A DNA stretch of 64,000 nucleotides from Escherichia coli (GCF_030013595.1 NZ_CP122768.1), one strand, 5' to 3'; shown: positions 20,664-42,877, counted from the first letter of the stretch. Notes: generated by a model not told the origin, from the sequence alone. Numbers and translations: made by a program.

Positions 20664-21146
20664 ATGTCTGGACCCCCGAAAACCCCGCCACGCCTGCATT
20701 TGATACGAGGTAACCCCTCAAAGCGGCCAGTTAAAGACCCCAAAAAAACCGCTAAAAAGGATGAAAAAGGTCTCCCTAAAATTCCGCAACACTTAGGGGC
20801 GCAGGGGAAGTACTGGTTCAGGCGAATGGCGGAAGAGCTGAATGCGGAAGGGATCATTTCTCAGCTTGATGCGCGTGCACTCGAGTTACTGGTGGAAGCC
20901 TACACCGAATACCGGCATCACTGCGAAACACTCGATGTTGAGGGGTATACCTACCGCACGGAAACGCAGAACGGTGATGTGCTGATTAAGGCACACCCGG
21001 CTGCTGCGATGAAAGCGGATGCCTGGAAGCGGATCCGGGCGATGCTTGCAGAGTTTGGTATGTCACCGGCAAGCCGGGCGAAAGTAAATACCGCCGGACC
21101 GGATGATGTTGATCCGCTGGCGGAACTTTTAAAAGCGAGAGACTGA
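20664..21146 (+). CDS. Terminase small subunit
   Basis: 160-aa protein immediately upstream of and overlapping the large terminase. Confidence 0.7.
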   Translation: MSGPPKTPPRLHLIRGNPSKRPVKDPKKTAKKDEKGLPKIPQHLGAQGKYWFRRMAEELNAEGIISQLDARALELLVEAYTEYRHHCETLDVEGYTYRTETQNGDVLIKAHPAAAMKADAWKRIRAMLAEFGMSPASRAKVNTAGPDDVDPLAELLKARD

Positions 21147-22903
21147 TGGCAAAAGTGGCTGATGGGATCCGCTACGCCGAACGTGTTGTTGCAGGAGAAA
21201 TTGTCGCTGGCGAATTTGTCCGTCTGGCCTGCCAGCGTTTTCTTGATGATCTGAAGTACGGCGAAGAGCGGGGGATTTATTTCAGTGAACCCCGTGCGCA
21301 GCACATCCTGAATTTCTACAAATTTGTGCCCCATGTAAAAGGGGCGCTGGCAGGCCAGCCCATTGAACTGATGGACTGGCATGTATTTATCCTCATTAAT
21401 ATTTTTGGTTTTGTCATTCCGCTGGTCAATGAAGAGACCGGGGAAGTTGTCATGCGCAGCGATGGCAGCGGACGTCCGGTGATGGTGCGCCGGTTCCGGA
21501 CGGCGTACAACGAAGTCGCCCGTAAAAACGCAAAATCAACCCTGTCATCGGGTATCGGCCTGTATATGACGGGGGCAGATGGTGAAGGCGGTGCTGAGGT
21601 GTATTCAGCCGCAACCACGCGTGACCAGGCCAGAATTGTGTTTGAAGACGCCAAAAATATGGTCAGGAAAGCCCGGTCGACACTCGGGCGGTTGTTTGAT
21701 TTCAACAAGCTGGCGATTTACCAGGAGCAGAGCGCATCAAAATTTGAACCGCTTTCCTCGGATGCAAACAACCTGGACGGTCTGAACATCCACTGCGCCA
21801 TTATTGATGAGCTGCATGCACATAAAACCCGCGACGTGTGGGACGTTCTGGAAACGGCAACCGGTGCCCGTCTGCAGTCCCTGTTATTTGGTATCACCAC
21901 GGCGGGCTTTAACAAGGAAGGGATTTGTTACGAGCAACGCGATTACGCCATCAAGGTATTGCGTGGCTATAACAGCGACGTGGAGGGCGCGGTAAAAGAC
22001 GACTCCTACTTTGCGATTATTTACACCCTCGATGAGGGAGATGATCCGTTTGATGAAACGGTCTGGCAGAAAGCGAATCCCGGACTGGGCATCTGTAAAC
22101 GCTGGGATGATCTGCGTCGTCTGGCGAAAAAAGCGAAAGAACAGGTCTCTGCGCGGGTGAATTTTTTTACCAAACACATGAATGTGTGGGTAACAGCAGA
22201 GTCTGCCTGGATGGACATGATTAAGTGGGAGAAGTGCGAATACATTGCCCCACGACATGAGCTGAAAACGTATCCCATGTGGGTCGGCGTTGACCTTGCT
22301 CATAAGATTGATATCTGTGCGGCGGCAAAACTCTGGCGAACGGATAACGGGCATGTTCATGCCGATTTTAAATTCTGGCTTCCGGAAGGACGGCTGGAAC
22401 GATGCTCGCGGCAGCAGGCAGAACTTTACCGGAAGTGGGCGGAGATGGATAAGCTCATCCTGACGGATGGTGATGTTATCGATCATGCTCAGATAAAAAG
22501 TGACTTACTGGAATGGATTGGCGGTGAAAACCTCAGGGAACTGGGATTTGACCCGTGGAGTGCAATGCAGTTCAGTCTGGCTCTGGCTGAAGAAGGGATA
22601 TCGCTGGTGGAAGTTCCGCAGACGGTCCGCAATCTGTCAGAGGCCATGAAGGAAACGGAATCACTGGTCTATGCCGGGCGTTTCCATCACAGCAATCACC
22701 CGGTCATGAACTGGATGATGTCTAACGTTACGGTAAAACCGGACAAAAACGACAATATCTTCCCGAACAAATCCACGCCTGAAGCCAAAATCGACGGCCC
22801 TGTTGCGATGTTTACAGCAATGAGCCGGATGCTGGTCAATGGCGGTGAACCGGAGCCGGATCTGTCTGAACACCTGATTAGTGTTGGTATCCGCTCGCTT
22901 TAA
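21146..22903 (+). CDS. Terminase large subunit
   Basis: 585-aa protein with ATPase and nuclease regions. Confidence 0.9.
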
Positions 22904-22914
22904 CCGAGGGCATT

Positions 22915-23097
22915 ATGTTTCTGATAATTCTCACGCCACTGGTGGGCGTGCTGGGGGCGCTTTTGCTGTCGTATGGCACATGGATGATTTATCCCCCGGC
23001 AGGTTTTGTTGTTGCCGGGGCGCTGTGTCTGTGCTGGTCGTGGCTGGTTGCGCGTTATCTCGATCGCGGTCACCGGGTCGCCTCCGGAGGTGAGTAA
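22915..23097 (+). CDS. Small hydrophobic protein between terminase and portal
   Basis: 60-aa ORF with two predicted TM segments; exactly fills the intergenic gap. Confidence 0.3.
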
Positions 23098-24338
23098 TGT
23101 TTTTCCAGGGGCTTTTTCAACGCAAAAATAACACCCCCGTCACAACGCCCGGGATGCTTGCGGAAGAACTTGGATTGTCATACGACACCTATACCGGAAA
23201 GCGGATCAGCAGCCAGCGGGCCATGCGGCTGACGGCGGTCTATTCCTGCGTCAGGGTGCTGGCGGAGTCTGTTGGTATGCTGCCCTGCAGCCTCTACAAA
23301 ATCACCGGTACCCTTAAAACACGGGCGGTAGATGAACGACTGCATAAGCTGGTTTCGGCAAAACCTAATGGCTACATGACGCCGCAGGAATTCTGGGAGC
23401 TGGTCATTGTCTGCCTGTGTCTGCGGGGTAATTTTTACGCCTACAAGGTAAAGGCACTGGGGGAAGTGGTGGAGCTTCTTCCGATAGATCCGGGCTGTGT
23501 GGAACCGAAGCTGAACAGCCAGTGGCAGCCGGTTTATCAGGTGACGTTTCCGGATGGTTCCGTGGATGTGCTGACCCAGAATGAAATCTGGCATGTGCGC
23601 ACTCTGACGCTGGATGGACTTGTCGGGCTGAATCCCATTGCGTATGCGCGTGAGGCCATTTCACTGGCAGCGGCAACTGAGGAGCACGGCGCCAGGTTGT
23701 TTGGTAACGGCGCTGTGACATCCGGTGTGTTGCGTACGGATCAACAACTTTCTGATCAGGCTTATGCGCGTATCAAAAAGGACTTTGAGGAACGGCATGT
23801 CGGGCTGGGAAATTCTCATCGTCCGATGATTCTGGAAATGGGGCTGGACTGGAAAACGGTGGCACTGAATGCCGAGGACAGCCAGTTCCTGGAAACCCGC
23901 AAGTTTCAGCTGGAAGAAATCTGTCGCCTGTTCCGCGTACCGCTGCATATGGTGCAGAACACCGATCGCGCCACCTTCAACAATATTGAAGAGCTGGGGC
24001 TTGGTTTCATTAACTATTCCCTTGTGCCGTATCTGACCCGTATTGAACAGCGGATCAATACAGGGCTGGTCAGGGAGAGCAAACAGGGGAGGTTTTACGC
24101 CAAATTTAATGCCGGAGCATTGTTGCGTGGCGACATGAAATCCCGCTTTGAAGCGTATGCCACGGGGATCAACTGGGGGATTTATTCCCCTAATGACTGC
24201 CGTGATCTGGAGGATATGAATCCCCGACCGGGCGGTGATGTGTATCTGACACCGATGAACATGACCACCAGTCCCTCTGCTGGCGATGACAACGGTAAGA
24301 AAAAGGAGAGTGGAGATGCAGACAAAACAGCGTCTTGA
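23097..24338 (+). CDS. Portal protein (HK97 family)
   Basis: 413-aa protein in the conserved position after terminase. Confidence 0.85.
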   Translation: MFFQGLFQRKNNTPVTTPGMLAEELGLSYDTYTGKRISSQRAMRLTAVYSCVRVLAESVGMLPCSLYKITGTLKTRAVDERLHKLVSAKPNGYMTPQEFWELVIVCLCLRGNFYAYKVKALGEVVELLPIDPGCVEPKLNSQWQPVYQVTFPDGSVDVLTQNEIWHVRTLTLDGLVGLNPIAYAREAISLAAATEEHGARLFGNGAVTSGVLRTDQQLSDQAYARIKKDFEERHVGLGNSHRPMILEMGLDWKTVALNAEDSQFLETRKFQLEEICRLFRVPLHMVQNTDRATFNNIEELGLGFINYSLVPYLTRIEQRINTGLVRESKQGRFYAKFNAGALLRGDMKSRFEAYATGINWGIYSPNDCRDLEDMNPRPGGDVYLTPMNMTTSPSAGDDNGKKKESGDADKTAS

Positions 24339-24966
24339 TATACCGCTGAACCTGAAATCCGTCAGTGATTCCGGGGAATTTGAAGGTTACGGTTCTGTTT
24401 TTGGTGTTAAGGACAGCCACGATGATGTGGTGGTCCCCGGTGCCTTTACCACAACACTCCAGAAATGGAGCGAAAAAAAGGCGCTGCCTGCGTTGCTCTG
24501 GCAGCACCGCATGGATGAGCCCATCGGTGTGTACACCGAAATGAAAGAAGATGATGTCGGGCTTTATGTCAGGGGGCGATTACTCGTTGATGATGATCCC
24601 CTGGCAAAACGTGCACATGCCCATATGAAGGCCGGTTCTTTAACCGGTCTTTCTATTGGCTACATCCTGAAAGACTGGGAGTACGACCGTGAAAAAGGGG
24701 TATTCCTGCTGAAAGAGATCGACCTGTGGGAGGTCAGTCTGGTGACGTTTCCTTCCAATGATGAGGCACGCATCAGCGATGTGAAAAATGCGCTGGCGCG
24801 TGGGGAGATCCCTGATCAGAAAATCATTGAGCGGGTCCTGCGCGATGTTGGACTCTCGCGAACCCAGGCCAAAGCATTCATGGCCGGGGGATATGGCGCT
24901 TTATCCCTGCGTGATGCTGAGGATGTGGATGCCGCACTGAATGCACTGAAAAATCTTAAATTTTAA
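24316..24966 (+). CDS. Prohead maturation protease (HK97-type, S78)
   Basis: AAGGAG ribosome-binding site; about 216 aa between portal and capsid. Confidence 0.8.
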   Translation: MQTKQRLDIPLNLKSVSDSGEFEGYGSVFGVKDSHDDVVVPGAFTTTLQKWSEKKALPALLWQHRMDEPIGVYTEMKEDDVGLYVRGRLLVDDDPLAKRAHAHMKAGSLTGLSIGYILKDWEYDREKGVFLLKEIDLWEVSLVTFPSNDEARISDVKNALARGEIPDQKIIERVLRDVGLSRTQAKAFMAGGYGALSLRDAEDVDAALNALKNLKF

Positions 24967-24980
24967 CCAGGAGAAAAATA

Positions 24981-26204
24981 ATGGCTGACATTAAAGATGT
25001 GGAGCAGGTCGCGCAGGAGCTGCAGCAGAAGTTTGACGATTTTAAGGCAAAAAACGACAAGCGCATTGACGCGATCGAACAGGAAAAAAGCAAGCTGGCC
25101 GAACAGGTGGAAAGCCTGAACGGGCAAATCAGCGAGCTGGAGAACCTGAAAAGCGACCTGGAAAAAGAGCTGGCAGACATCAAGCGTCCGGCAGGCGGCA
25201 CGCAAAATAAAGTTGCCGGTGAACACAAAGAAGCGTTTATCGGATTTATGCGCAAGGGGCGTGAAGACGGTCTGCGTGAACTTGAACGTAAGGCGCTTCA
25301 GGTAGGTAATGATGAAGATGGTGGTTATGCCATTCCGGAAGAACTGGATCGTACCATCCTGACGCTGCTGAAAGATGAGGTGGTGATGCGCCAGGAAGCC
25401 ACTGTGATCACCCTCGGTGGCTCGGATTATAAAAAACTGGTGAATCTGGGCGGCACTAAGTCCGGATGGGTGGGGGAAACGGATACGCGTCCGGAAACCG
25501 CCACCTCAAAACTGGGACTGATTGAACCCTTTATGGGGGAAATCTACGGCAACCCGCAGGCTACCCAGAAAATGCTCGATGATGCTTTCTTCAATGTGGA
25601 AGACTGGATCAACAGTGAACTGGCGCTGGAATTTGCCGAACAGGAAGAAATTGCCTTTACCAGTGGCGACGGCAGCAAAAAACCAAAAGGTTTTCTGGCT
25701 TATGAGTCCACCGATGAAGATGACAAGACCCGTGCGTTTGGCAAACTTCAGCACATTGCTTCCGGCGCGGCTTCTGGCGTGACCGCTGATGCGATCATTA
25801 AACTGATTTACACCCTGCGCAAGGCGCACCGCAGCGGCGCGAAGTTCATGATGAACAACAGCAGCCTGTTTGCCATTCGCCTGCTGAAGGATAACGACGG
25901 AAATTATCTGTGGCGTCCGGGTATTGAGCTGGGTCAGCCTTCTTCTCTGGCAGGGTATGGCATCGTTGAGAATGAGCAGATGCCGGATATTGCTGCCGAT
26001 GCAAAAGCTATTGCGTTTGGTAACTTCAAACGCGGCTATACCATTGTTGATCGCATCGGTACCCGTATCCTGCGTGACCCGTACACCAACAAACCGTTTG
26101 TGGGCTTTTATACCACCAAGCGAACCGGCGGTATGCTGGTGGATTCTCAGGCGATTAAGCTGATGAAAATTGGGGCCGCAACCCGCCAGAAAGCCGCGGC
26201 GTAA
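24981..26204 (+). CDS. Major capsid protein (HK97 fold)
   Basis: 407 aa with coiled-coil N-terminal delta domain (KLAEQVESLNGQISELENLKSDLEKELADIK) then capsid core. Confidence 0.85.
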   Translation: MADIKDVEQVAQELQQKFDDFKAKNDKRIDAIEQEKSKLAEQVESLNGQISELENLKSDLEKELADIKRPAGGTQNKVAGEHKEAFIGFMRKGREDGLRELERKALQVGNDEDGGYAIPEELDRTILTLLKDEVVMRQEATVITLGGSDYKKLVNLGGTKSGWVGETDTRPETATSKLGLIEPFMGEIYGNPQATQKMLDDAFFNVEDWINSELALEFAEQEEIAFTSGDGSKKPKGFLAYESTDEDDKTRAFGKLQHIASGAASGVTADAIIKLIYTLRKAHRSGAKFMMNNSSLFAIRLLKDNDGNYLWRPGIELGQPSSLAGYGIVENEQMPDIAADAKAIAFGNFKRGYTIVDRIGTRILRDPYTNKPFVGFYTTKRTGGMLVDSQAIKLMKIGAATRQKAAA

Positions 26205-26248
26205 TGCGGTTTTTTATGCCCGCACAGTGTTGCGGGCAGGAGTTTCTG

Positions 26249-26566
26249 ATGGCAGCAATAGTGGAAAAACTCAGGGCGCAGTGCCGTATTGATACAGATG
26301 ATGCAACTGATGATGAGTTACTGATGCTGTATTTCCGGGCTGCCTGCCGCAAGGCAGAAAATTTTATCAACCGTAAGCTTTATGAGGAGACGGTGCCGGA
26401 AGGTGATCCTGACGGGGTGCTTATAGCTGATGATGTTTTGCTGGCGCTCATGTTGCTGGTCGGACACTGGTACGAAAACCGGGAAAATTCCTCAGATGTC
26501 AGCAAGGCACCAGTCCCGTTTGGTTTTTCTTCTCTGCTGGAGCCTTATCGTTTTATTCCTTTGTAG
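26249..26566 (+). CDS. Head-tail connector (gp6-like)
   Basis: GGCAGGAG ribosome-binding site; small protein after capsid; preceded by a hairpin at about 26221..26240. Confidence 0.55.
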   Translation: MAAIVEKLRAQCRIDTDDATDDELLMLYFRAACRKAENFINRKLYEETVPEGDPDGVLIADDVLLALMLLVGHWYENRENSSDVSKAPVPFGFSSLLEPYRFIPL

Positions 26567-26574
26567 GAGGAACC

Positions 26575-26913
26575 ATGCAGGCGGGCAGATTACGTGATCG
26601 CGTAACTATTCTGAATGTCACCACCGCCCGCTCTCCGTCAGGGCATCCGGTGGAGACGGTGACGGAGGGAGCTACCGTATGGGCAGAAGTTAAGGGTATC
26701 AGCGGGAGGGAGATAATCTCAGGCGGAGCAGAAACCGCTCAGGCTACAGTCAGAGTCTGGATGAGATTCCGGCGCGATGTGACAGCGACTTCACGTCTGA
26801 AAGTGCTGACCGGTGCATTTAAAGGGGCCACTCTTGGTATAGAAGGGCCACCAATACCGGATGCACGCGCCACCCGGCTTGAAATACTCTGCAGCCTGAA
26901 GGGGAATGTGTGA
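26575..26913 (+). CDS. Head closure/adaptor protein
   Basis: Position and size in the head-tail joining block. Confidence 0.55.
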   Translation: MQAGRLRDRVTILNVTTARSPSGHPVETVTEGATVWAEVKGISGREIISGGAETAQATVRVWMRFRRDVTATSRLKVLTGAFKGATLGIEGPPIPDARATRLEILCSLKGNV

Positions 26914-27359
26914 TGGATTTCAGTCTTGATTTTTCCGGCCTGGCGGATATTGCACGGGATCTGGAGACGCTCAGCAGGGCAGAAAACAATAAGGTTCTGC
27001 GCGATGCCACCCGTGCCGGTGCTGAAGTTATGCGGGATGCAGTTGTTGAACGTGCGCCGGAGCGAACCGGGAAACTGAAGAAAAATGTGGTTGTTCTCAC
27101 TCAGCGTTCAAAGCGTCGGGGAGAAATTATCTCGGGTGTCCACATTCGCGGACGGAACCTGCGAACCGGAAACAGTGATAACAGCATGAAAGCCAGCGAT
27201 CCCCGAAATGCGTTTTACTGGCGCTTTGTGGAGCTGGGAACGATAAACATGCCCGCGCATCCGTTCATTCGCCCGGCTTTCGATACGACAGAGGAACTGG
27301 CAGCACAGATTGCCATACAGCGAATGAATCAGGCTATTGATGAGGTCTTAAGTAAATGA
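26910..27359 (+). CDS. Tail component (HK97 gp10-like)
   Basis: Position and size; overlapping start and stop. Confidence 0.55.
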   Translation: MMDFSLDFSGLADIARDLETLSRAENNKVLRDATRAGAEVMRDAVVERAPERTGKLKKNVVVLTQRSKRRGEIISGVHIRGRNLRTGNSDNSMKASDPRNAFYWRFVELGTINMPAHPFIRPAFDTTEELAAQIAIQRMNQAIDEVLSK

Positions 27360-27700
27360 GAGAGACCACACTGTATTCCCTGCTGTCTCAGCTGGCCGGA
27401 GGACAGGTTTATCCTTATGTGGTCCCGCTGACGGAGGGAAAGCCTGCGGTATCTCCGCCGTGGCTGGTGTTTTCTGTGGTGTCTGACACGGCGTCTGATG
27501 TGCTTGATGGTCAGGCTGAATCCAGAATTACCGTGCAGATCGATGTCTGGGCGACGGTACCTGATGACGCAGATGGTATTCGTGAGCAGGCGATTGATGC
27601 GGTAAGGAAACTGGCACCCTCCGTTATTTCTAAAACGCAGGGTTATGATCCTGATTCCCGTCTGAGCAGAGCCACGCTTGAATTTCAGGTAATAACCTGA
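27356..27700 (+). CDS. Tail completion/terminator protein
   Basis: Position and size; overlapping start and stop. Confidence 0.5.
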   Translation: MRETTLYSLLSQLAGGQVYPYVVPLTEGKPAVSPPWLVFSVVSDTASDVLDGQAESRITVQIDVWATVPDDADGIREQAIDAVRKLAPSVISKTQGYDPDSRLSRATLEFQVIT

Positions 27701-27758
27701 GGTCGTTAATGATTTTACCCACCCGCCGCTGGCGGGTTTTTATTTTCAGGAGACGAGT

Positions 27759-28463
27759 ATGTCCTCTAATTTTGAGCGTTCGCAACTGACGAAAATTATG
27801 ATTTCGTCTGCACCGGTAACAGCAGAAACCCTGGATTCTGCCAGCTATCTTGGCCTGAGCTGTACAATCAAAGAGGTGCAGTTTACCGCAGGACAAAAGC
27901 AGGATATTGATGTCACCACGCTGTGTTCTGTTGAGCAGGAAAATATTAACGGTCTTGGTGCCGCGTCAGAGATTTCCATGTCAGGCAACTTTTACCTCAA
28001 TGCTGCCCAGAACGCGTTGCGCAGTGCCTATGACAATGACACCACGTATGGCTTTAAAGTTATTTTTCCGTCAGGAAACGGATTTACCTTTATGGCAGAG
28101 GTGCGTCAGCATACCTGGTCTGCAGGAACCAATGGTGTTGTGGCTGCAACGTTTTCCCTGCGCCTGAAAGGTAAACCTGTGCTGACGACAGAGCCGCTGA
28201 AAGTGAAGGTCGATTTAAACAGCACGCTGCAGGTTTCTGCCGGAGCGAAACTCGAAATGGTGGTTGAGGCTGCCGGTGGTGTGCCGCCTTATTCTTATGT
28301 TTGGAAGAAAGGTAGTTCTCCTGTTTCCGGACAGACGGCGGCAACGTTCAGTAAGGCATCAGCAGCATCCGGTGATGCCGGTGCGTATACCTGCGAGATT
28401 TCTGATTCAGCAAGCCCGGTTAACAAAGTGACCACCACTTCCTGCACTGTAACCGTCAGTTAA
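27759..28463 (+). CDS. Major tail protein with C-terminal Ig-like domain
   Basis: 234 aa; C-terminal ..PPYSYVWKKGSSPVSGQTAATFSKASAASGDAGAYTCEISD.. is a bacterial Ig-like fold signature. Confidence 0.7.
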   Translation: MSSNFERSQLTKIMISSAPVTAETLDSASYLGLSCTIKEVQFTAGQKQDIDVTTLCSVEQENINGLGAASEISMSGNFYLNAAQNALRSAYDNDTTYGFKVIFPSGNGFTFMAEVRQHTWSAGTNGVVAATFSLRLKGKPVLTTEPLKVKVDLNSTLQVSAGAKLEMVVEAAGGVPPYSYVWKKGSSPVSGQTAATFSKASAASGDAGAYTCEISDSASPVNKVTTTSCTVTVS

Positions 28464-28477
28464 TGAGGATGGATGTG

Positions 28478-28960
28478 ATGACTAAAAATATCCGTAATCT
28501 TGCACTGGCAACGATGTCGGGGTTTCGCCATAAAACCGTTGATGTGCCTGAATGGGAGGGAGCAACGGTTGTGTTACGGGAACCTTCTGCAGAAGCCTGG
28601 TTGCGCTGGCAGGAGATCGTTAAAGCCAGGGAAGATGATACATCGCCATCTGTTGCAGAGCGTGCCCGCCGAAATCTGGAGGCGGACGTTGAGCTGTTCA
28701 TTGATGTTCTGTGTGATACCGGGCTGCAACCCGTATTTTCAGCGGATGATCGTGAACAGGTGATTGCCGTGTATGGCCCGGTGCATGCCCGGCTTCTTCG
28801 CCAGTCTCTGGAACTGATCAGTGATGCCGGAGAGGTTAAAAAAAGTAGCGCTTCCGGGGATGCGTTTTCTGATGATGCTGGCGCTCAGGATGGGGCGCAC
28901 ATTGTCAGAGTTACGCCGGGAAATGTCCGCATCAGAAATCATGATGTGGGCAGAATTTGA
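28478..28960 (+). CDS. Tail assembly chaperone (lambda G-like)
   Basis: Position between major tail protein and tape measure; overlapping downstream out-of-frame ORF. Confidence 0.7.
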   Translation: MTKNIRNLALATMSGFRHKTVDVPEWEGATVVLREPSAEAWLRWQEIVKAREDDTSPSVAERARRNLEADVELFIDVLCDTGLQPVFSADDREQVIAVYGPVHARLLRQSLELISDAGEVKKSSASGDAFSDDAGAQDGAHIVRVTPGNVRIRNHDVGRI

Positions 28961-29150
28961 CAGGTTCAGCCCGCTGGGGGACGAACGGGCTGATATCCGG
29001 GCTGCCCAGATTGTTTCCGCTGTTTACGGTGCGCAGGGGGTCAAAGTACCACTGAATGATGTGCTTCTTCAGTGGGAGCAGGAGCAGACAGAAGGCGCCT
29101 CAGATCCATTTGCCGGGCTGGAAAACGCGCTTTTAACCGTGTCTCAGTGA
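28478..29150 (+). CDS. Tail assembly chaperone frameshift fusion (GT-like), predicted recoding product
   Basis: Second ORF (28821..29150) overlaps the G 3' end in the +1 (equivalently -2) frame; A7 run at 28838..28844 in the overlap. Confidence 0.45.
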
Positions 29151-29190
29151 GTCAACATAACCGCTTCGGCGGTTTTTTTTCGTCCGGAGA

Positions 29191-32100
29191 ATGAGTGTGG
29201 CGACATTACGTGAACTGATTATTAAAATTTCGGCAAACTCCCGGTCATTTCAGTCAGAGATCTCCCGGGCTTCGCGTATGGGGCAGGATTACTACCGTAC
29301 CATGCAGAACGGAAGCCGACAGTCCGCTGCTGCATCCCGTGAAATGCGGCGTGCACTGGCAGAAGTGACGGATCAGATAAATACAGCTAAATCTTCGGCA
29401 CTGAACATGGCGGGGGCATTTGCCGGGGCTTTTGCTACCGGTCATCTTATTTCTCTCGCCGATGAGTGGAATTCAGTCAATGCCCGTCTGAAGCAGGCCT
29501 CACAGTCCAGTGATGATTTTCAGGCATCACAACGTGAATTAATGGCAATCAGCCAGAGAACGGGGACGGCTTTTTCTGATAACGCCAGCCTTTTTGCCCG
29601 TTCTGCAGCTTCCATGCGGGAGTATGGTTACAGTTCTGAGGAGGTACTGAAAGTCACCGAGGCGATCTCCACGGGCCTGAAATTATCCGGTGCCAGTACA
29701 GCAGAAGCCAGTTCGGTGATTACGCAGTTCAGTCAGGCACTGGCGCAGGGAGTGCTGCGCGGTGAAGAGTTTAACTCGGTGAATGAGAACGGCGATCGTG
29801 TTATTCGTGCGCTGGCTGGGGGAATGGGAGTTGCCCGTAAGGATCTGAAGGCCATGGCGGATAACGGAAAACTGACCGCCGATAAGGTTGTTCCTGCACT
29901 GATTAGTCAGCTTGGGGCATTACGTGATGAATATGCGGCAATGCCTGATACGGTTTCATCCTCTGCAACCAAAGTTGAAAACGCCTTTATGGCCTGGGTT
30001 GGTGGTGCGAACGAGGCAAGCGGAGTGACGCAGACGCTCTCCGGTGTGCTGAATGGTATTGCAGGCAATATTGACACCGTGGCAACCGCTGCCGGCGCTC
30101 TGGTTGCCGTCGGGGTAGCCCGATATTTTGGCAATATGGCGTCTTCTGCTGGATCTGCAACTGCCGGATTAATTACTGCAGCCAGAAACGAAGTGGCTCT
30201 TGCTGAAGCGCAACTTCGGGGGACACAGATAGCAACCGCCAGGGCGCGTGCGGCGGTTTATCGTGCGCAACAGGCGGTTGTTGCTGCTCGCGGTACCGAA
30301 AGGCAGGCCGCAGCAGAAGCGAAGCTGACAGCTGCCCAGGCGTCACTTACCCGTAATATTGCGGCCAGAACAGCGGCACAGACAACGCTGAATACTGTCA
30401 CGTCAGTGGGGAGTCGTCTGTTAAGTGGTGCGCTGGGGCTGGTTGGTGGTGTGCCGGGACTCGTCATGCTGGGGGCGACGGCCTGGTACACGATGTATCA
30501 GAATCAGGAGCAGGCCAGAGAATCTGCACGCCAGTATGCCGCAACAATCGACGAAATTCGCCAGAAAACGTCGGCAATGTCGCTTCCTGAAGCGTCAGAT
30601 AATGAGGAAAAAACGCGACAGGCACTGAAGGAGCAGAACAGGTTAATTGACGAGCAGAAAAGTAAGATTAAATCCTTACAGGAAAAAATTGCTGGCTATC
30701 AGTATGTGCTGGCAAATCCGGGCTGGACAACCGATAACGGTTTTATGATTAACCACATGACGTCGGTAAAAACTGTCACAGAAGGGCTTGCAGAAGCAAC
30801 AAATCAACTGGCAGTTGAACAGTCTCGCCTCACTCAAATGCAGGGCAAAGCGCAATCCATTCAGGATGTGCTTGCCGGGCTGGAGGAGCGACGGGTGGCG
30901 TTGATCCGTCAACAGGCAGCGGAACAAAACAAAGCGTATCAGTCCCTGTTGATCATGAATGGGCAGCATACCGAGTTTAATCGCCTTCTCGGGCTTGGTA
31001 ATGAATTACTTCAGCAGCGACAGGGGCTGGTGAATGTACCGTTACGGCTACCACAGGCAACCCTGGATGATAAACAGCAGACCGCACTGAATAACAGCAA
31101 GCGCGAACTGGCTCTGTCCCGCCTTAAGGGGGAAGCGCGTGAGCGTGCCCGACTGGGCTATGCTGCGGATGATCTCGGCTTTGTGGGAGAGGCGTATCAG
31201 ACAGCCAGACAGAATTATATCAATAACTCACTGGATGCCTGGCGAAATAACCAGGCAAATAAACCCAAAGCGCATAAAAAGACCGAAGCGGAAAAAACAG
31301 AAGATATTTATAAACGGCTGATTAAACAGCAAAAAGAACAGATAGCACTGGCAGGGCAGAATACTGAACTGGCTAAGATGAAATATCAGGTCAGTCAGGG
31401 CGAATTATCAACCCTGTCAGAAGCGCAGAAAAAAACGCTTTTGCAGAATGCAGCACTCATCGACCAGAAAAAGATTCGTGAGCAGCTTGCCGCGTATGAA
31501 AGCAGTCTGGCGGACAGTAATGCCAGTGCCCGGGCGTCTGACGACGCGCAGTTGCTGGGATATGGTGAAGGCTCACGGATGCGTGAACGGCTCCAGGAAA
31601 TGTGGAGTATCCGGCATGAGTTTGAGCAGAAAAATAACGAGCTGCTGAGACAGTATCAGGCCGGAGAAATTGAAGAAGCCCTGTGGAAACAGGAGAAAGA
31701 ACTGAATAAAAAATATCTGGAAGAGCGTCTCAGCGATCAGCAGGATTATTATGCAAAGGCCGATGCTTTACGTAATAACTGGAATGCTGGACTCCAGGAG
31801 GGACTGACCAACTGGGCAGACAGTGCCACCGATTATGCTTCACAGGCGGCAGATGCTGTCGTTTCCACGATGGACGGGCTGGTATCAAATATTTCCGATG
31901 CACTGGCCGGGAATGTTGTGGACTGGAGGAACTGGGGGAGTTCAGTTCTCCGGGAAGTTTCAAAAATTCTGATGAATGCAGCCATTGTTAACGGACTGAA
32001 ATCACTCTCCGGTGCCGGAGGGTGGCTTGGTACGGTCGGCGGATGGATTTCGGGGGCAGTGGCAAACGCAAAAGGTGGTGTTTACACATCGGCAAATCTG

Positions 32101-32424: not shown

Positions 32425-32758
32425 GCCTGAAGTTTTTAACTGGATCCCCCGTGAGGGGATGGAGACGACACGAAAGCCATCAGTTATTACGGTAAAGTTT
32501 GGTGACGGATATGAACAGCGACGGGCTGGTGGCCTGAATGCGGATCTGAAAACGTTTAAACCGGTATTTCGTGTCACAGATGAATATTCCCGTGCCGCGC
32601 TGGACAGTTTTTTATCCCGTCATGCCGGGATTCGTGCTTTTTTGTGGCGTCCGCCAAAACACAACAGGACTGTCCGGGTTGTCTGCAGGGAGTGGAGCAT
32701 TTCGGATAATGCCATGTATACCGATTTTAACTGTACCTTTGAAGAGGTCACTCACTGA
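32420..32758 (+). CDS. Minor tail protein M
   Basis: Lambda gpM-like sequence (MPEPEVFNWIPREGMETTRKPSVITVKFGDGYEQRR..); start approximate. Confidence 0.75.
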   Translation, partial: PEPEVFNWIPREGMETTRKPSVITVKFGDGYEQRRAGGLNADLKTFKPVFRVTDEYSRAALDSFLSRHAGIRAFLWRPPKHNRTVRVVCREWSISDNAMYTDFNCTFEEVTH

Positions 32759-33456
32759 TGCAGGGTATACAGCAGGAAACACTCAATGAGTGCACTAAAA
32801 CGGAGCAATCCGCGCTGGTCGTGCTCTGGGAAATTGATCTGACAGAGGTCGGCGGAGAACGTTATTTCTTCTGTAATGAGCAGAACGAAAAAGGTGAACC
32901 AGTCACCTGGCAGGGGCGGCAGTATCAGGCTTATCCCATTCAGGGAAGCGGATTTGAGATGAACGGCAAAGGAGCCAGTGCAAGGCCAACGCTTAAAGTC
33001 TCTAATCTGTACGGCATGGTCACCGGGATGGCGGAAGATTTGCAGAGTCTGGTCGGCGGAACGGTGGTCCGGCGTAAGGTTTACGCCCGTTTTCTGGATG
33101 CGGTGAACTTCGTCAACGGAAACAGCGAAGCCGATCCGGAGCAGGAGATTATCAGCCGCTGGCGCATCGAGCAGTGTAGCAATTTAACAGCGGTAAGTGC
33201 CTCCTTTGTACTGTCCACGCCGACGGAAACGGATGGCGCTGTTTTTCCGGGACGTATCATGCTGGCCAACACCTGCACCTGGACCTATCGCGGTGATGAG
33301 TGCGGTTATCACGGTCCGGCGGTCGCGGATGAATATGACCAGCCGACGTCCGATATCACGAAGGATAAATGCAGCAAATGCCTGAGCGGTTGTAAGTTCC
33401 GCAATAACGTCGGCAACTTTGGTGGCTTCCTTTCCATTAACAAACTTTCGCAGTAA
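32758..33456 (+). CDS. Minor tail protein L
   Basis: Lambda gpL-like; C-terminal Cys cluster (CSKCLSGCKFRNNVGNFGGF). Confidence 0.85.
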   Translation: MQGIQQETLNECTKTEQSALVVLWEIDLTEVGGERYFFCNEQNEKGEPVTWQGRQYQAYPIQGSGFEMNGKGASARPTLKVSNLYGMVTGMAEDLQSLVGGTVVRRKVYARFLDAVNFVNGNSEADPEQEIISRWRIEQCSNLTAVSASFVLSTPTETDGAVFPGRIMLANTCTWTYRGDECGYHGPAVADEYDQPTSDITKDKCSKCLSGCKFRNNVGNFGGFLSINKLSQ

Positions 33457-33461
33457 ATCCC

Positions 33462-34205
33462 ATGACACAGACAGAATCAGCGATTCTGGCGCACGCCCGG
33501 CGATGTGCGCCAGCGGAGTCGTGCGGCTTCGTGGTAAGCACGCCGGAGGGGGAAAGATATTTCCCCTGCGTGAATATCTCCGGTGAGCCGGAGGCGTATT
33601 TCCGTATGTCGCCGGAAGACTGGCTGCAGGCAGAAATGCAGGGTGAGATTGTGGCGCTGGTCCACAGCCACCCCGGTGGTCTGCCCTGGCTGAGTGAGGC
33701 CGACCGGCGGCTGCAGGTGCAGAGTGATTTGCCGTGGTGGCTGGTTTGCCGGGGGGCGATTCACAAGTTCCGCTGTGTGCCACATCTTTCCGGGCGGCGC
33801 TTTGAGCACGGGGTGACGGACTGTTACACGCTGTTCCGGGATGCTTACCATCTGGCGGGGATTGAGATGCCGGATTTTCATCGCGAGGATGACTGGTGGC
33901 GTCACGGTCAGAATCTCTATCTGGATAATCTGGAGGCCACAGGGCTGTATCAGGTGCCGTTGTCAGCGGCGCAGCCGGGCGATGTGCTGCTGTGCTGTTT
34001 TGGTTCATCGGTGCCGAATCATGCCGCCATTTACTGTGGTGACAGCGAGCTGCTGCACCATATTCCTGAACAACTGAGCAAACGAGAGAGGTACACCGAC
34101 AAATGGCAGCGACGCACACACTCCCTCTGGCGTCACCGGGCATGGCACGCATCTGCCTTTACGGGGATTTGCAACGATTTGGCCGCCGCATCGACCTTCG
34201 AGTGA
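33462..34205 (+). CDS. Tail assembly protein K (MPN/JAB plus NlpC/P60 domains)
   Basis: Lambda gpK-like; HSHP metal-binding motif (ALVHSHPGG). Confidence 0.85.
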   Translation: MTQTESAILAHARRCAPAESCGFVVSTPEGERYFPCVNISGEPEAYFRMSPEDWLQAEMQGEIVALVHSHPGGLPWLSEADRRLQVQSDLPWWLVCRGAIHKFRCVPHLSGRRFEHGVTDCYTLFRDAYHLAGIEMPDFHREDDWWRHGQNLYLDNLEATGLYQVPLSAAQPGDVLLCCFGSSVPNHAAIYCGDSELLHHIPEQLSKRERYTDKWQRRTHSLWRHRAWHASAFTGICNDLAAASTFE

Positions 34206-34750
34206 AAACGGGGTCCGAAGCCATCCGGGCGCTGGCCATGCAGAACCCGGCGTTTCGTCAGAAACTGAGCGACGGCTGGTACCAGGTACGCATTGCCGGG
34301 CGTGATGCAGGTGAAACCGAATTGTCTGCCCGTCTTAATGAGCCGCTGGCAAATGGTGCCGTGATCCACATCGTGCCGCGTCTGGCGGGAGCTAAAAGTG
34401 GCGGTGTTTTTCAGGCAGTGCTGGGTGCGGCGCTGATTGCGGTGGCATGGTGGAACCCTGTGGGCTGGCTGGGTGCCGCGGCTGTATCGGGCATGTATGC
34501 GGCAGGGGCCAGTATGATCCTGGGCGGTGTTGCACAGATGCTGGCCCCTAAACCCAAAACTCCCCGCACACAGACAACGGATAACGGCAAACAGAACACC
34601 TATTTTTCTTCACTGGATAATATGGTTGCCCAGGGCAATGTTCTGCCCGTTCTGTACGGTGAAATGCGCGTGGGATCACGTGTGGTATCTCAGGAGATCA
34701 GCACAGCAGATGAAGGTGATGGTGGTCAGGTTGTGGTGATTGGTCGCTGA
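34103..34750 (+). CDS. Tail assembly protein I
   Basis: Near-identical to lambda gpI as recalled (MAATHTLPLASPGMARICLYGDLQRFGRRIDLRV..). Confidence 0.85.
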   Translation: MAATHTLPLASPGMARICLYGDLQRFGRRIDLRVKTGSEAIRALAMQNPAFRQKLSDGWYQVRIAGRDAGETELSARLNEPLANGAVIHIVPRLAGAKSGGVFQAVLGAALIAVAWWNPVGWLGAAAVSGMYAAGASMILGGVAQMLAPKPKTPRTQTTDNGKQNTYFSSLDNMVAQGNVLPVLYGEMRVGSRVVSQEISTADEGDGGQVVVIGR

Positions 34751-34807
34751 TGCAAAATGTTTTATGTGAAACCGCCTGCGGGCGGTTTTGTCGTTTCTGG
34801 AGCGTGA

Positions 34808-38209
<3,402 letters not shown>

Positions 38210-38227
38210 ATTTTATAATCCATAACG

Positions 38228-38251
38228 GGCGTCAGAAATGACGCCTTTTTT
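38228..38251 (+). terminator. Intrinsic terminator after J
   Basis: ggcgtca-gaaa-tgacgcc followed by T6. Confidence 0.5.
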
Positions 38252-38275
38252 ATTGCAGAAAAGCGAGAGGTAATT

Positions 38276-38875
38276 ATGCGTAAACTTTATGCCGCCATTT
38301 TGTCCGCAGCCATTTGTCTGGCCGTATCCGGTGCGCCTGCATGGGCGTCTGAGCAGCAGGCCACGCTGAGCGTGGGGTATCTTCATGCCCGGACGAACGT
38401 TCCCGGCAGTGATGATCTGAACGGGATTAACGTGAAATACCGTTATGAGTTTACGGACACACTGGGGATGGTGACGTCATTCAGCTATGCAGGAGACAAG
38501 AATCGCCAGCTGACCCATTACAGCGATACCCGCTGGCATGAAGATTCCGTTCGTAACCGCTGGTTCAGCGTAATGGCGGGGCCGTCTGTGCGCGTGAATG
38601 AATGGTTCAGCGCGTATGCGATGGCGGGTGTGGCTTACAGCCGTGTGTCGACTTTCTCCGGGGATTATCTCCGCGTAACTGACAACAAGGGGAAAACGCA
38701 CGACGTGCTGACCGGAAGTGATGACGGTCGCCACAGCAACACGTCTCTGGCGTGGGGAGCTGGCGTGCAGTTTAACCCGACCGAATCCGTGGCCATTGAT
38801 ATTGCTTATGAAGGCTCCGGCAGTGGCGACTGGCGCACTGACGGTTTCATCGTGGGTGTCGGTTATAAGTTCTGA
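38276..38875 (+). CDS. lom: Lom-like outer-membrane beta-barrel protein (Ail/Lom/PagC family)
   Basis: Signal peptide MRKLYAAILSAAICLAVSGAPAWA; barrel ending ..GVGYKF. Confidence 0.8.
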   Translation: MRKLYAAILSAAICLAVSGAPAWASEQQATLSVGYLHARTNVPGSDDLNGINVKYRYEFTDTLGMVTSFSYAGDKNRQLTHYSDTRWHEDSVRNRWFSVMAGPSVRVNEWFSAYAMAGVAYSRVSTFSGDYLRVTDNKGKTHDVLTGSDDGRHSNTSLAWGAGVQFNPTESVAIDIAYEGSGSGDWRTDGFIVGVGYKF

Positions 38876-38902
38876 TTAGCCAGGTAACACAGTGTTATGA
38901 CA

Positions 38903-38928
38903 GCCCGCCGGTTCAGGCGGGCTTTTTT
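38903..38928 (+). terminator. Intrinsic terminator after lom
   Basis: gcccgcc-ggttcag-gcgggc followed by T6. Confidence 0.5.
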
Positions 38929-38939
38929 GTGGGGTGAAT

Positions 38940-41900
38940 ATGGCAGTAAAGATTTCAGGTGTACTGAAAGACGGCACAGGAAAACCGGTACAGAACTGCA
39001 CAATCCAGCTGAAAGCAAAACGTAACAGCACCACGGTGGTGGTGAACACGCTGGCCTCAGAAAATCCGGATGAAGCCGGGCGTTACAGCATGGACGTTGA
39101 GTACGGTCAGTACAGCGTTATTCTGTTGGTGGAAGGATTCCCGCCGTCACATGCCGGGACCATCACCGTGTATGAAGATTCCCGACCCGGTACGCTGAAT
39201 GATTTTCTCGGTGCCATGACGGAGGATGATGCCCGTCCGGAGGCACTGCGCCGTTTTGAACTGATGGTGGAAGAGGTGGCGCGTAACGCGTCCGCGGTGG
39301 CACAGAACACGGCAGCCGCGAAGAAGTCAGCCAGCGATGCCGGCACATCAGCCCGTGAGGCGGCAACCCATGCGACTGATGCTGCAGGCTCAGCACGCGC
39401 AGCCAGCACGTCAGCCGGACAGGCCGCGTCGTCGGCTCAGTCAGCGTCTTCCAGCGCAGGAACGGCATCAACAAAGGCCACTGAAGCGGAAAAAAGTGCT
39501 GCCGCTGCAGAGTCCTCAAAAAGCGCGGCGGCCACCAGTGCCGGTGCGGCGAAAACGTCAGAAACGAATGCCGCAGCGTCACAACAATCAGCAGCCACTT
39601 CTGCATCCACCGCGACTACGAAAGCGTCAGAAGCTGCCACCTCAGCCCGGGATGCGGCGGCCTCAAAAGAGGCAGCGAAATCATCAGAAACGAACGCATC
39701 CTCGAGCGCCAGTAGCGCAGCTTCCTCGGCAACGGCGGCAGGAAATTCCGCGAAGGCGGCAAAAACGTCAGAGACGAACGCCAGGTCTTCTGAAACGGCA
39801 GCGGGACAGAGCGCCTCGGCTGCGGCAGGCTCAAAAACAGCGGCTGCATCATCTGCCAGTGCAGCGTCAACAAGTGCCGGGCAGGCCTCAGCCAGTGCCA
39901 CCGCCGCCGGAAAATCGGCAGAAAGCGCCGCATCGTCTGCTTCAACAGCCACAACGAAGGCTGGCGAAGCCACTGAACAGGCCAGCGCAGCAGCGAGGTC
40001 TGCTTCCGCAGCGAAGACATCCGAAACGAACGCGAAAGCGTCGGAAACCAGCGCAGAATCCTCAAAAACGGCAGCCGCATCGTCCGCCAGTTCGGCAGTG
40101 TCATCGGCATCATCTGCGTCTGCTTCAAAAGATGAGGCGACCAGACAGGCGTCAGCAGCGAAGGGCAGCGCCACGACGGCATCCACGAAGGCGACAGAGG
40201 CAGCTGGCAGTGCGAGGGCAGCAGCTCAGAGCAAAAGTACGGCGGAATCTGCAGCAACGCGCGCTGAGACAGCGGCAAAACGGGCAGAGGATATTGCATC
40301 CGCCGTGGCGCTTGAGGATGCGAGCACGACGAAAAAGGGGATAGTACAGCTCAGCAGTGCGACCAACAGTACGTCTGAAACGCTGGCGGCAACGCCAAAG
40401 GCAGTAAAATCAGCCTATGACAATGCAGAGAAACGTCTGCAGAAAGACCAGAACGGCGCTGATATACCCGATAAGGGACGCTTCCTGAACAACATTAACG
40501 CGGTCAGTAAAACAGACTTTGCTGATAAGCGTGGTATGCGTTATGTGCGGGTTAACGCTCCTGCAGGTGCAACATCTGGAAAATATTACCCTGTTGTTGT
40601 TATGCGTTCTGCTGGCTCAGTAAGCGAACTGGCATCAAGGGTCATTATCACCACGGCAACGCGAACCGCAGGCGATCCGATGAATAACTGCGAGTTTAAC
40701 GGGTTTGTTATGCCTGGTGGCTGGACTGACAGGGGGCGTTATGCTTATGGAATGTTCTGGCAATATCAAAACAATGAACGAGCCATCCACTCAATAATGA
40801 TGAGTAATAAGGGCGATGATTTGCGCTCTGTGTTCTATGTTGATGGTGCTGCTTTCCCTGTTTTTGCGTTTATTGAAGATGGCCTGTCAATATCCGCACC
40901 TGGTGCTGATCTCGTTGTTAATGATACGACCTATAAGTTTGGGGCAACAAATCCAGCGACGGAATGTATCGCGGCGGACGTTATCCTTGATTTTAAGAGT
41001 GGCCGTGGTTTTTATGAGTCCCATTCGTTAATCGTTAACGATAACTTGTCGTGCAAAAAACTTTTTGCCACAGACGAAATTGTAGCGCGTGGTGGTAATC
41101 AGATTCGAATGATAGGTGGGGAGTATGGTGCATTATGGCGTAATGATGGCGCTAAAACTTACCTGCTGCTTACCAATCAAGGTGATGTTTATGGTGGCTG
41201 GAATACATTAAGACCGTTTGCTATTGATAACGCAACCGGCGAACTGGTTATTGGAACCAAACTGTCCGCAAGTCTGAACGGTAATGCATTAACAGCAACA
41301 AAGCTGCAAACGCCAAGACTGGTTTCTGGGGTTGAGTTTGATGGTTCCAGAGATATTACTTTAACCGCTGCGCATGTTGCTGCTTTTGCCAGAAGAGCAA
41401 CGGATACGTATGCCGATGCGGATGGGGGCGTTCCCTGGAATGCCGAATCAGGCGCTTACAATGTCACCCGCTCTGGCAACAGCTATATTCTGGTTAACTT
41501 CTATACCGGAGTCGGAAGTTGCCGGACATTGCAGATGAAGGCGCATTACAGAAATGGAGGTCTGTTCTACCGTTCCTCAAGAGATGGCTATGGTTTTGAG
41601 GAAGACTGGGCAGAAGTTTATACCTCGAAAAATCTTCCACCAGAAAGCTACCCAGTCGGCGCACCAATCCCGTGGCCATCAGATACCGTTCCGTCTGGTT
41701 ATGCCCTGATGCAGGGGCAGACTTTTGACAAATCTGCTTACCCGAAACTTGCAGCCGCTTATCCGTCAGGCGTGATCCCTGATATGCGTGGCTGGACGAT
41801 TAAGGGCAAACCTGCCAGTGGTCGGGCCGTATTGTCTCAGGAACAGGACGGCATTAAATCGCACACCCACAGCGCCAGCGTATCCAGTACGGATTTGGGG

Positions 41901-42293
41901 ACGAAAACCACATCGTCGTTTGATTACGGCACTAAATCCACGAATAACACCGGGGCGCATACGCACAGTGTGAGCGGTACAGCCGCAAGTGCCGGAAACC
42001 ATACTCATAGTGTCACAGGCGCATCAGCAGTCAGCCAGTGGTCACAAAATGGGTCAGTACATAAGGTAGTGTCTGCGGCCAGTGTGAATACAAGTGCTGC
42101 AGGAGCACACACTCATAGTGTCAGCGGCACAGCTGCATCTGCAGGTGCTCACGCACATACTGTCGGTATTGGTGCTCATACGCACTCTGTTGCGATTGGC
42201 TCACATGGACACACTATCACCGTTAACGCTGCTGGTAACGCGGAAAACACCGTCAAAAACATCGCATTTAACTACATTGTGAGGCTTGCATAA
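38940..42293 (+). CDS. Side tail fibre protein (Stf-like) with long Ala/Ser-rich repeat region
   Basis: N-terminus [26 protein letters not shown].. (lambda Stf-like); GAHTHS-type repeats near the C-terminus. Confidence 0.85.
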
Positions 42294-42877
42294 TGGCATT
42301 CAGAATGAGTGAACAACCACGGACCATAAAAATTTATAATCTGCTGGCCGGAACTAATGAATTTATTGGTGAAGGTGATGCATATATTCCGCCTCATACA
42401 GGTCTGCCAGCAAACAGTACCGATATTGCACCGCCAGATATTCCGGCTGACTTTGTGGCTGTTTTCAACAGTGATGAGGCATCGTGGCATCTCGTTGAAG
42501 ACCATCGGGGTAAAACAGTTTATGACGTGGCATCAGGGGACGCGTTATTTATTTCTGAACTCGGTCCGTTACCGGAAAATGTTACCTGGTTATCGCCGGA
42601 AGGGGAATATCAGAAGTGGAACGGCACAGCCTGGGTGAAAGATGCAGAAGCAGAAAAACTATTCCGGATCCGGGAAGCGGAAGAAACAAAAAACAGCTTG
42701 ATGCAGGTAGCCAGTGAGCATATAGCGCCGCTTCAGGATGCTGTAGATCTGGAGATCGCAACGGAGGAAGAAAACTCGTTGCTGGAAGCCTGGAAGAAGT
42801 ATCGGGTGTTGCTGAACCGTGTTGATACATCAACTGCACCTGATATTGAGTGGCCGGAAGAACCAGACACAATGTAA
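42293..42877 (+). CDS. Tail fibre assembly protein (Tfa)
   Basis: 194 aa immediately after stf with overlapping start. Confidence 0.8.

Follow-up and report, generated by a model that had tools for sequence, protein, structure and literature searches.

That lambdoid phages and their temperate relatives are mosaics joined at gene boundaries has stood in the textbooks since the genomes of HK97 and HK022 were compared; the original genome paper is said to be that of Juhala et al. from 2000. Here, we consider a stretch of 64,000 nucleotides (nt) from an Escherichia coli chromosome (GCF_030013595.1, NZ_CP122768.1), referred to as the window, which carries a temperate prophage of ~43.1 kb. We read positions 20168-42877 of its plus strand as the late (virion) operon of this prophage and as a multi-part mosaic, and put the probability of this reading at roughly 0.9. 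The original prediction, made from the sequence alone, had described positions 20664-42877 as HK97-type head genes joined to a lambda-type tail. Judging from the comparisons presented below, a phiP27-like capsid block, an HK97-like tail shaft and a lambda-like tail tip would be the more accurate label.

The described systems closest to this operon are phiP27, HK97 and lambda. The Stx2e-converting phage phiP27 (AJ298298) has the same early, replication, Q, DNA-methylase, lysis and HNH genes in the same order, with 84-95% nt identity over most of positions 1792-20583, and a hairpin with the same stem core follows its major capsid protein (MCP) gene. It differs by its contractile tail (sheath, baseplate), by stx2e and by other alleles of the small and large terminase genes (TerS, TerL); its sheath, L47, baseplate, StxA and StxB proteins gave no tblastn match in the window, where no nucleotide-level similarity to its integrase was detected either. 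In HK97, all virion genes follow the same order, and an HNH gene likewise lies cyclically upstream of TerS; it also shares the Pfam families of the head, terminator hairpins in the same three gaps and the slot between T and H, and its proteins from head closure through tape measure are 50-80% identical to those of the window. It differs in its packaging and head proteins, its chainmail residues and its L, K, I and J proteins, and it has no lom; its gene 15 and its other morons are absent from the window. Lambda has the same order M-L-K-I-J-lom-stf-tfa, with 78-96% amino-acid (aa) identity in L, K, I, J (residues 1-1000) and Tfa, but shows no similarity in the packaging, head, head-tail joining, tube or chaperone genes.

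Setting and gene order of the virion module

The prophage sits in the chromosome at the 3' end of ssrA. Its ends are fixed because the direct repeats of the attachment (att) site at 279-329 and 43383-43433 represent the 3' end of ssrA, the transfer-messenger RNA (tmRNA) gene itself follows at 43396-43758 (minus strand), and a sister prophage, that of ETEC1732, occupies the same site. On its right, the flanking DNA (smpB, ratA, bamE, recN, ffh and further genes) is shared at 98% identity by thousands of genomes. The virion module constitutes the right arm of the prophage, and the predicted interval has exact bounds, with 20664 being the ATG of the small terminase gene and 42877 the stop of tfa. 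All virion open reading frames (ORFs) are closely packed on the plus strand, which also applies to the gaps and hairpins discussed below. They are arranged in the order TerS, TerL, a 60-aa ORF, portal, S78 prohead protease, MCP, gp6-like connector, head completion, HK97-gp10-like protein, tail completion, tube protein with an immunoglobulin-like (Ig) domain, G, T, tape measure, M, L, K, I, J, Lom, Stf and Tfa, and Pfam confirms the family of each gene from TerS through Tfa.

The packaging and head block

Each gene of the module was compared by tblastn with lambda (NC_001416) and with HK97 (NC_002167), and none of the packaging and head genes matched lambda. The block shows the HK97 gene order (TerS-TerL-portal-protease-MCP), the same Pfam families and an HNH gene adjoining the terminase genes. 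At the sequence level, however, its proteins are only 23-35% identical to those of HK97, and TerS and the connector have no HK97 match, so that the term HK97-type holds for the architecture and the Pfam or fold family only. Portal, protease and MCP have their best matches in phiP27: positions 22862-26238, comprising orf60, portal, protease and MCP, are 92.8% identical to it at the nucleotide level. Within this block, the 60-aa orf60 (22915-23097; hypothetical in the annotation of relatives) is 73% aa identical to phiP27 L37, and the portal protein (23097-24338; Pfam Phage_portal, E = 9e-107) is 94% identical to phiP27 and 32% to HK97, with no match in lambda. The S78 protease gene (24316-24966; Peptidase_S78, E = 4e-33), whose start was placed by homologues within an ORF opening at 24286, encodes a protein 100% identical to phiP27 L39 and 35% identical to HK97 gp4. 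The best match of the MCP (24981-26204; HK97-fold family, Phage_capsid, E = 9e-81) in a protein search is likewise phiP27, at 96%, compared with only 23-26% for HK97 gp5. These three Pfam matches all exceed the gathering cut-offs. The MCP N-terminus has weak coiled-coil-type matches, consistent with a delta-like domain, only 14 nt separate the protease and MCP genes, and there is no separate scaffold or decoration gene, as in the HK97 layout. The HK97 chainmail residues K169, N356 and E363 are not conserved, being aligned by MAFFT with R, a gap and T, respectively, where the last two positions are uncertain at 23% identity.

The terminase genes belong to a separate allele, which is 96.6% nt identical to that of phage PhiR49_2. 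TerS (20664-21146; Terminase_4, E = 1.6e-25; P27 family by the naming of the Prokaryotic Genome Annotation Pipeline (PGAP) in relatives) had no tblastn match in lambda, HK97 or phiP27, while TerL (21146-22903; 585 aa; TerL_ATPase and TerL_nuclease) is 29% aa identical to HK97 and 38% to phiP27, again with no lambda match. The HNH endonuclease gene (20168-20518; Pfam HNH, E = 4e-16), a packaging accessory gene 5' of TerS, lies outside the predicted interval but is part of the packaging module; its product is 90% identical to phiP27 L34 and 36% to the HK97 HNH protein (HK97 39054-39413). The non-coding gap between HNH and TerS (20519-20663) probably holds the cos site. This placement is based only on phiP27, in which cos is annotated between the corresponding genes and which has the motif CTGCAACCCTGGCTG in common with the window; nucleotide similarity to phiP27 stops at 20583, within the gap. 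Phage records starting at query position 1 were considered as a mark of cos at 20664 and rejected, since they match in minus-strand orientation and stop at a variety of module borders, as would be the case for partial assemblies.

Connector and tail shaft

The gp6-like head-tail connector or adaptor (26249-26566; Phage_connect_1) has no HK97 match, is 43% aa identical to phiP27 L41, and is replaced by another cassette over 26172-26564 in six relatives; it is a separately swapped cassette. From here on, the module turns to HK97. Head closure (26575-26913) is 65% identical to HK97 gp7, the HK97-gp10-like protein (26910-27359) 80% to HK97p08 and the tail completion or terminator protein (27356-27700) 50% to HK97p09, each with its Pfam family. 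The major tail (tube) protein (27759-28463), which carries the C-terminal Ig-like domain (Ig_2, Ig_3 and weak TTP matches), is 70.5% identical to HK97 gp12, and the tail assembly chaperones G and T (28478-29150; Phage_TAC_1 and Phage_tail_T) are 65% and 63% identical to their HK97 counterparts. None of these proteins matched lambda. The tape measure protein H (29191-32424; 1077 aa; Phage_HK97_TLTM, TMP_3 and Tape_meas_lam_C) is 55% identical to HK97 gp16 over its full length, whereas its match to lambda H is confined to the C-terminal 240 aa, at 27%. By this comparison, the genes at 26575-32424, that is, head closure, shaft, chaperones and tape measure, are HK97-like (50-80% aa) and not lambda-like.

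The lambda junction and the tail tip

The minor tail protein M (32417-32758; Phage_min_tail), which probably starts at a GTG at 32417 overlapping the H stop codon, is about equidistant from lambda M (40% aa) and HK97 M (39%), and its nucleotide similarity to lambda is confined to the last ~20 nt of the gene. It is at this point (32738-32758, including the TGATG stop/start overlap with L) that lambda-like DNA begins: the blastn match to lambda opens at 32738, 20 nt 5' of the L start codon at 32758, and continues at 91.9% nt identity through 37767. Among the top 30 phage records, 18 begin matching at window position 32754 and one more at 32817. The blastn breakpoint and the per-gene identities place the lambda junction at M|L, within the tail module rather than at the border between head and tail.

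Downstream of the junction, L (32758-33456) is 93% aa identical to lambda, K (33462-34205; 247 aa, JAB/MPN and NlpC/P60 domains) 91% and I (34103-34750) 78%, each with its Pfam family; L, K, I and J are only about 34% identical to HK97. The first 45 residues of K (33462-33600) are 100% identical to translated lambda DNA at 14133-14267, which precedes the K start annotated in lambda (14276) and is read in another frame. Compared with K of the window, the K annotation of the lambda reference (199 aa) therefore looks N-terminally truncated or frameshifted. The tip attachment protein J is 89% identical to lambda overall, with ~96% in 50-aa bins for residues 1-1000 (34811-37810) and ~40% for the C-terminal receptor-binding domain, residues 1001-1132 (37811-38209). 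This domain, a swapped cassette, is variable among relatives and 97-99% identical to that of long-tailed Stx1a, Stx2a and Stx2c phages, CP-1639 and YYZ-2008. The Lom/Ail outer-membrane protein moron (38276-38875; Ail_Lom, E = 6e-119) is a divergent allele, 47% identical to lambda Lom and without a counterpart in HK97. The side tail fibre Stf (38934-42293; 1119 aa; phage_tail_N, Gp34_trimer and Collar) is internally mosaic, with residues 1-354 and 906-1119 being 81% and 68% identical to the lambda stf halves and an unrelated middle part. Finally, the tail fibre assembly protein Tfa (42293-42877; Caudo_TAP) is 95% identical to lambda orf-194.

Breakpoints among related loci

Breakpoints were surveyed in 107 loci, namely 104 IMG/VR loci retrieved by their G/T sequence and three annotated relatives. 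Breaks cluster sharply at 20158, 22845, 26172/26206, 26564, 29113/29159, 30632/30782 and 37116-38192; the positions other than 30632/30782 represent gene or domain edges and hairpin gaps. We also considered M|L as a recent crossover and rejected this possibility, as coverage does not drop among the 107 relatives (63, 61 and 57 high-scoring segment pairs across the boundary). In the absence of a break cluster at M|L, the HK97-like shaft and the lambda-like tip are therefore fixed in the lineage.

The composite is found in one place, at 80% or more of the module, in 175 complete E. coli genomes, the best of which reach ~94% mean identity, and the phages vB_EcoS-640R1 and PhiR49_2 hold 64-69% of the module. 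This is an old and widespread combination of genes, not one newly joined. ETEC1732, Z1323HEC0477, PhiR49_2 and vB_EcoS-640R1 have the same composite with end-to-end synteny, and such relatives vary in the connector cassette, the J receptor-binding domain, stf and morons (sodC, inserts between T and H); in PhiR49_2, portal through MCP are replaced. The sister prophage of ETEC1732 shows 99.6-99.96% identity in the left arm, 88% over 20160-26172, 95% over 26564-41977 and 98% beyond. Given that 20160-26172 is less similar than either flank, the head block was exchanged as a unit.

The G/T slippery run and the state of this copy

In the relatives, the site at which G and T meet reads GTT AAA AAA AAG TAG, a -1 heptamer of the type A_AAA_AAG with T in the -1 frame. 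The corresponding run in the window (28838-28844) is A7. Among the 107 related loci, 102 (~95%) have A8 and five have A7, so that a programmed -1 frameshift for G-T fusion is a feature of those 102 loci and not of the window. As a consequence of A7, G loses its stop codon and runs for ~41 extra codons to 28960, and the frame of T (ending at 29150) becomes +1 instead of -1. A7 was considered as a clonal marker and rejected, because the nearest neighbour of every A7 locus is an A8 locus; two A7 loci have flanks identical to those of an A8 locus. This non-clonal distribution therefore indicates recurrent loss or homopolymer sequencing error. At least six independent sequence backgrounds (6 of the 85 loci with sufficient flanks) show the loss of an A, and a gain of an A was not observed.

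In addition, an element of the IS3 family (HTH_Tnp_1, rve) is located at 9921-11229, among the replication genes of the early-right operon. Its ORFs (10851-11177 and 9964-10854) run in the minus direction. Neither phiP27 nor the ETEC1732 prophage has this element.

The alternative that survives best is that the prophage is decaying and 'grounded', no longer capable of tail assembly, with A7 as a true inactivating frameshift in G/T and the IS3 element crippling early and late expression. The rarity of A7, its effects on the G stop and the T frame, the marking of the same G/T state in ETEC1732 as a pseudogene by PGAP and the position of the IS3 element amid replication genes are all in favor of this view. 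On the other hand, all other virion ORFs are full length when compared to their homologues, errors of sequencing or assembly also typically drop one base from a homopolymer, and the insertion is intergenic relative to L17 and L18 of phiP27. Moreover, a -2 slip on A7 would restore the exact G-T product and a -1 slip would yield normal G. We regard decay as a tentative possibility, somewhat less probable than not. It bears on the functional state of this copy and not on the identity of the module.

Hairpins in the intergenic gaps and moron slots

Four hairpins had been noted in intergenic gaps (at 26221, 27723, 29160 and 34770), and all four were recovered and found to be conserved in position. 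Two more flank lom, and every intergenic gap of at least 40 nt between 26 and 39 kb holds a hairpin (six of six). Hairpin 1 (26217-26238; TGCCCGCA-CAGTGT-TGCGGGCA) has a stem of 8 bp with a T-run on its 5' side; a Shine-Dalgarno sequence and the start codon of the connector gene (ATG, 26249) come next. Similarity to phiP27 ends here at 26238 and similarity to PhiR49_2 starts at ~26206, such that the switch from one to the other falls within ~15 nt common to all three (the T-run and the 5' arm); hairpin 1 marks a cassette boundary. A 38-nt direct repeat with 76% identity links 26190-26227 to 15638-15675, the two copies sharing GGTTTTTTATGCCCG; one is located at the MCP stop codon and hairpin 1 and the other in a non-coding stretch 5' of a minus-strand porin gene. 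This repeat may be a recurring terminator or linker motif, or a chance match.

Hairpin 2 (27721-27737; ACCCGCC-GCT-GGCGGGT, then TTTTTATTTT), located 5' of the major tail gene, combines a 7-bp stem with a T-run in the canonical shape of an intrinsic terminator, and corresponds in position and stem to a 'putative terminator' of HK97 (HK97 6692-6719). Hairpin 3 (29159-29174; AACCGC-UUCG-GCGGUU, then U8; 6 bp) constitutes the right edge of the T/H moron slot. This slot is empty in the window, while the T/H gap of 13 relatives contains an AT-rich insert of 400-450 nt, which ends in hairpin 3 or its equivalent and encodes a small membrane/zinc-ribbon protein or a lipoprotein. According to the HK97 annotation, the moron gene 15 occupies the same slot; morons as a concept, and the location of gene 15 as their founding member, have been described (PMC3594210). 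Hairpin 4 (34769-34788; AAACCGCC-TGCG-GGCGGTTT; 8 bp and an interrupted T-run) is identical in its stem-loop to the one in the I/J gap of lambda, and strain Z1323 has sodC inserted in this gap. The terminator-like hairpins 5 (38227-38246, after J and before lom) and 6 (38902-38923, after lom) bracket lom, the latter being homologous and near-identical to that of lambda.

Five of the six hairpins have the shape of an intrinsic terminator, i.e. a GC stem followed by a T-run, and the HK97 record has 'putative terminator' features at three equivalent gaps. All six gaps fold better than their dinucleotide-shuffled controls, with z-scores of -4.0, -2.45, -1.48, -2.52, -2.97 and -2.14 in order; the single values are modest, and they are consistent as a set. 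A terminator scan of the whole region is mildly enriched (28 found vs 20.1 +/- 4.2 expected), and because this enrichment is only mild, the signal lies in the placement of the hairpins in gaps and not in their total number. Chance is thus countered by placement, fold z-scores and positional conservation rather than by counts. In an Rfam scan of 19500-43900, none of the hairpins matched an RNA family; tmRNA and IS009 were the only matches. We read the hairpins as putative Q-suppressible terminators that would delimit moron slots (T/H, I/J and both sides of lom) and cassette edges.

Alternatively, the gap hairpins could mainly be conserved 'linker' sites for homologous recombination between modules. 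The switch inside ~15 shared nt at hairpin 1, the clustering of breakpoints beside hairpin 1 (26206) and hairpin 3 (29159), and stems that HK97 or lambda have in common with the window in spite of diverging flanks all point in this direction. However, five hairpins have the full terminator shape, breakpoints are as sharp at the hairpin-free gene edges 20158, 22845, 26564 and 32738, and selection for intact genes alone would leave junctions in gaps. That morons carry their own terminator also explains hairpins at the ends of inserts (PMC3594210). As a primary function, we consider linkage unlikely; an additional linker role of the terminator-like hairpins is possible, but not required, given the equally sharp junctions at hairpin-free edges. 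Related to this proposal, the A8 run might be a hypermutable, reversible switch between tail-competent and tail-less 'grounded' states, or A7 might follow an alternative -2 regime that still gives the exact G-T product, both of which we judge to be very improbable.

One junction or several

In its two-part form, the mosaic would consist of an HK97-like head joined directly to a lambda-like tail (M to Tfa) at a single, textbook junction. Several elements of this proposal were well founded. The module is indeed mosaic, with segments defined by per-gene tblastn and blastn breakpoints; head order and Pfam families are those of HK97; nothing in the head gave a lambda match, let alone a best one; and L through Tfa are lambda-like (78-95% aa, Lom 47%) in lambda order including lom. 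Other elements fail. Portal, protease and MCP match phiP27 at 94-100%, compared with 23-35% across the head proteins for HK97, head closure through tape measure resembles HK97 and argues against a lambda-type tail as a whole, and M belongs no more to lambda than to HK97. Besides the lambda junction at M|L, further junctions were found at 20583, 22862, 26206-26238, 26566 and ~37800 and at lom and stf, and the module contains at least eight junctions. Per-gene tblastn and synteny comparison with lambda and HK97 thus upheld the mosaic and not the split in two; the strict two-part version is ruled out by these comparisons together with the blastn breakpoints and phiP27, and any looser form of it seems highly improbable to us.

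An assembly chimera between prophages of one genome, for which one could invoke the median of four places matching the module per E. coli genome and several short phage records breaking at module borders, is extremely improbable given the same end-to-end composite in 175 complete genomes and, largely, in sequenced phage records, the lack of a breakpoint at M|L among the 107 related loci and reading frames that are continuous across every junction.

Other features of the prophage

At the position of stx2e in phiP27, where ileZ/argO and stxAB are found, the window (16136-18033) has a DNA methyltransferase gene (16136-17182), tRNA-Gly(UCC) (17443-17517) and then a hypothetical ORF of 132 aa, without any Stx match in the window. 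An OmpC-like porin gene (14242-15339, minus strand; Porin_1, E = 2e-154) is located immediately downstream of Q, at a place taken in phiP27 by L22, an unrelated gene. It may serve as a lysogenic-conversion or exclusion gene, and is perhaps relevant to the non-lambda receptor-binding domain of J. A replication-initiator-like gene (8914-9825) contains, at 9310-9421, 20-nt direct repeats in two pairs (9310/9342 and 9378/9402) that look like origin iterons.

Toward the right end, an Rfam match to IS009 (RF02111, 213.9 bits; 42636-42834, plus strand) falls wholly within the tfa coding sequence. Directly 3' of tfa, a non-coding block of ~100 nt (42880-42988) is conserved at 87-94% with differing flanks; its counterparts are located at 24162-24259 in lambda, at 20943-21039 in HK97 (by its sib site) and at the right end of phiP27 (42239-42344). 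Two long antisense ORFs, 35411-37435 (minus strand, 674 aa, in J) and 33184-34152 (minus strand, 322 aa, in L/K), were considered as genes and rejected; they are probably a by-product of codon composition in GC-rich DNA, as the antisense frame of lambda J is equally long (705 vs 749 codons).

Discussion

An operon of this composition is best explained by cassettes of genes passed horizontally between temperate phages of enterobacteria. Its parts, in order, are a phiP27-like HNH gene; TerS and TerL as a separate allele; a phiP27-like block from orf60 through portal and protease to MCP; a connector with its own allele; the HK97-like stretch from head closure to tape measure; M as an orphan allele; lambda-like DNA from L to about residue 1000 of J; a J receptor-binding domain of the long-tailed Stx-phage type; a divergent lom; an internally mosaic stf; and a lambda-like tfa. 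From the known biology of these phage families, one would expect the Q-family antiterminator (13669-14052; Phage_antitermQ match) to let late transcription pass the terminator-like gap hairpins, which in the lysogen could insulate independently expressed inserts. HNH and TerS/TerL would cut the DNA and package it into an HK97-fold capsid, built from portal, S78 protease and an MCP that provides its own N-terminal scaffold-like domain, with no gene for a separate scaffold or decoration protein. The tail shaft, HK97-like and non-contractile, would then be assembled on a lambda-like tip complex, with the non-lambda C-terminal domain of J and the side fibres determining host range.

Several points weigh against this interpretation. 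Hairpin 1 has no T-tail on its 3' side and is not a canonical terminator. The A7 run removes the normal -1 route to the G-T fusion protein, and the IS3 insertion could be polar on Q and late expression; taken together, this copy may lack functional tails or be poorly inducible, which leaves the identity of the module unchanged. We infer terminator function, read-through by Q and the location of cos from sequence and annotation. Likewise, the 'donor' labels phiP27, HK97 and lambda name the best-characterised relatives only and do not indicate the direction of transfer.

A literature search found the review on morons (PMC3594210) and no paper describing this particular phiP27/HK97/lambda composite. 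Since the composite is present in 175 complete E. coli genomes and is routinely annotated there, it is an ordinary case: the module represents the already known mosaicism of temperate enterobacterial phages, with more parts than first proposed. It carries little weight alone, and its value is that of a clean and well-resolved example. The label 'HK97-like head, lambda-like tail' would misname the tail shaft genes and overlook the kinship with phiP27. The prophage is stx-negative, and the A7 run matters for whether it can still form particles. The module exemplifies a capsid block common to the contractile-tailed phiP27 and a non-contractile tail, an intra-tail junction at which a lambda-like tip has to function together with an orphan M and a tape measure of HK97 type, and gaps that bear hairpins and double as moron slots.

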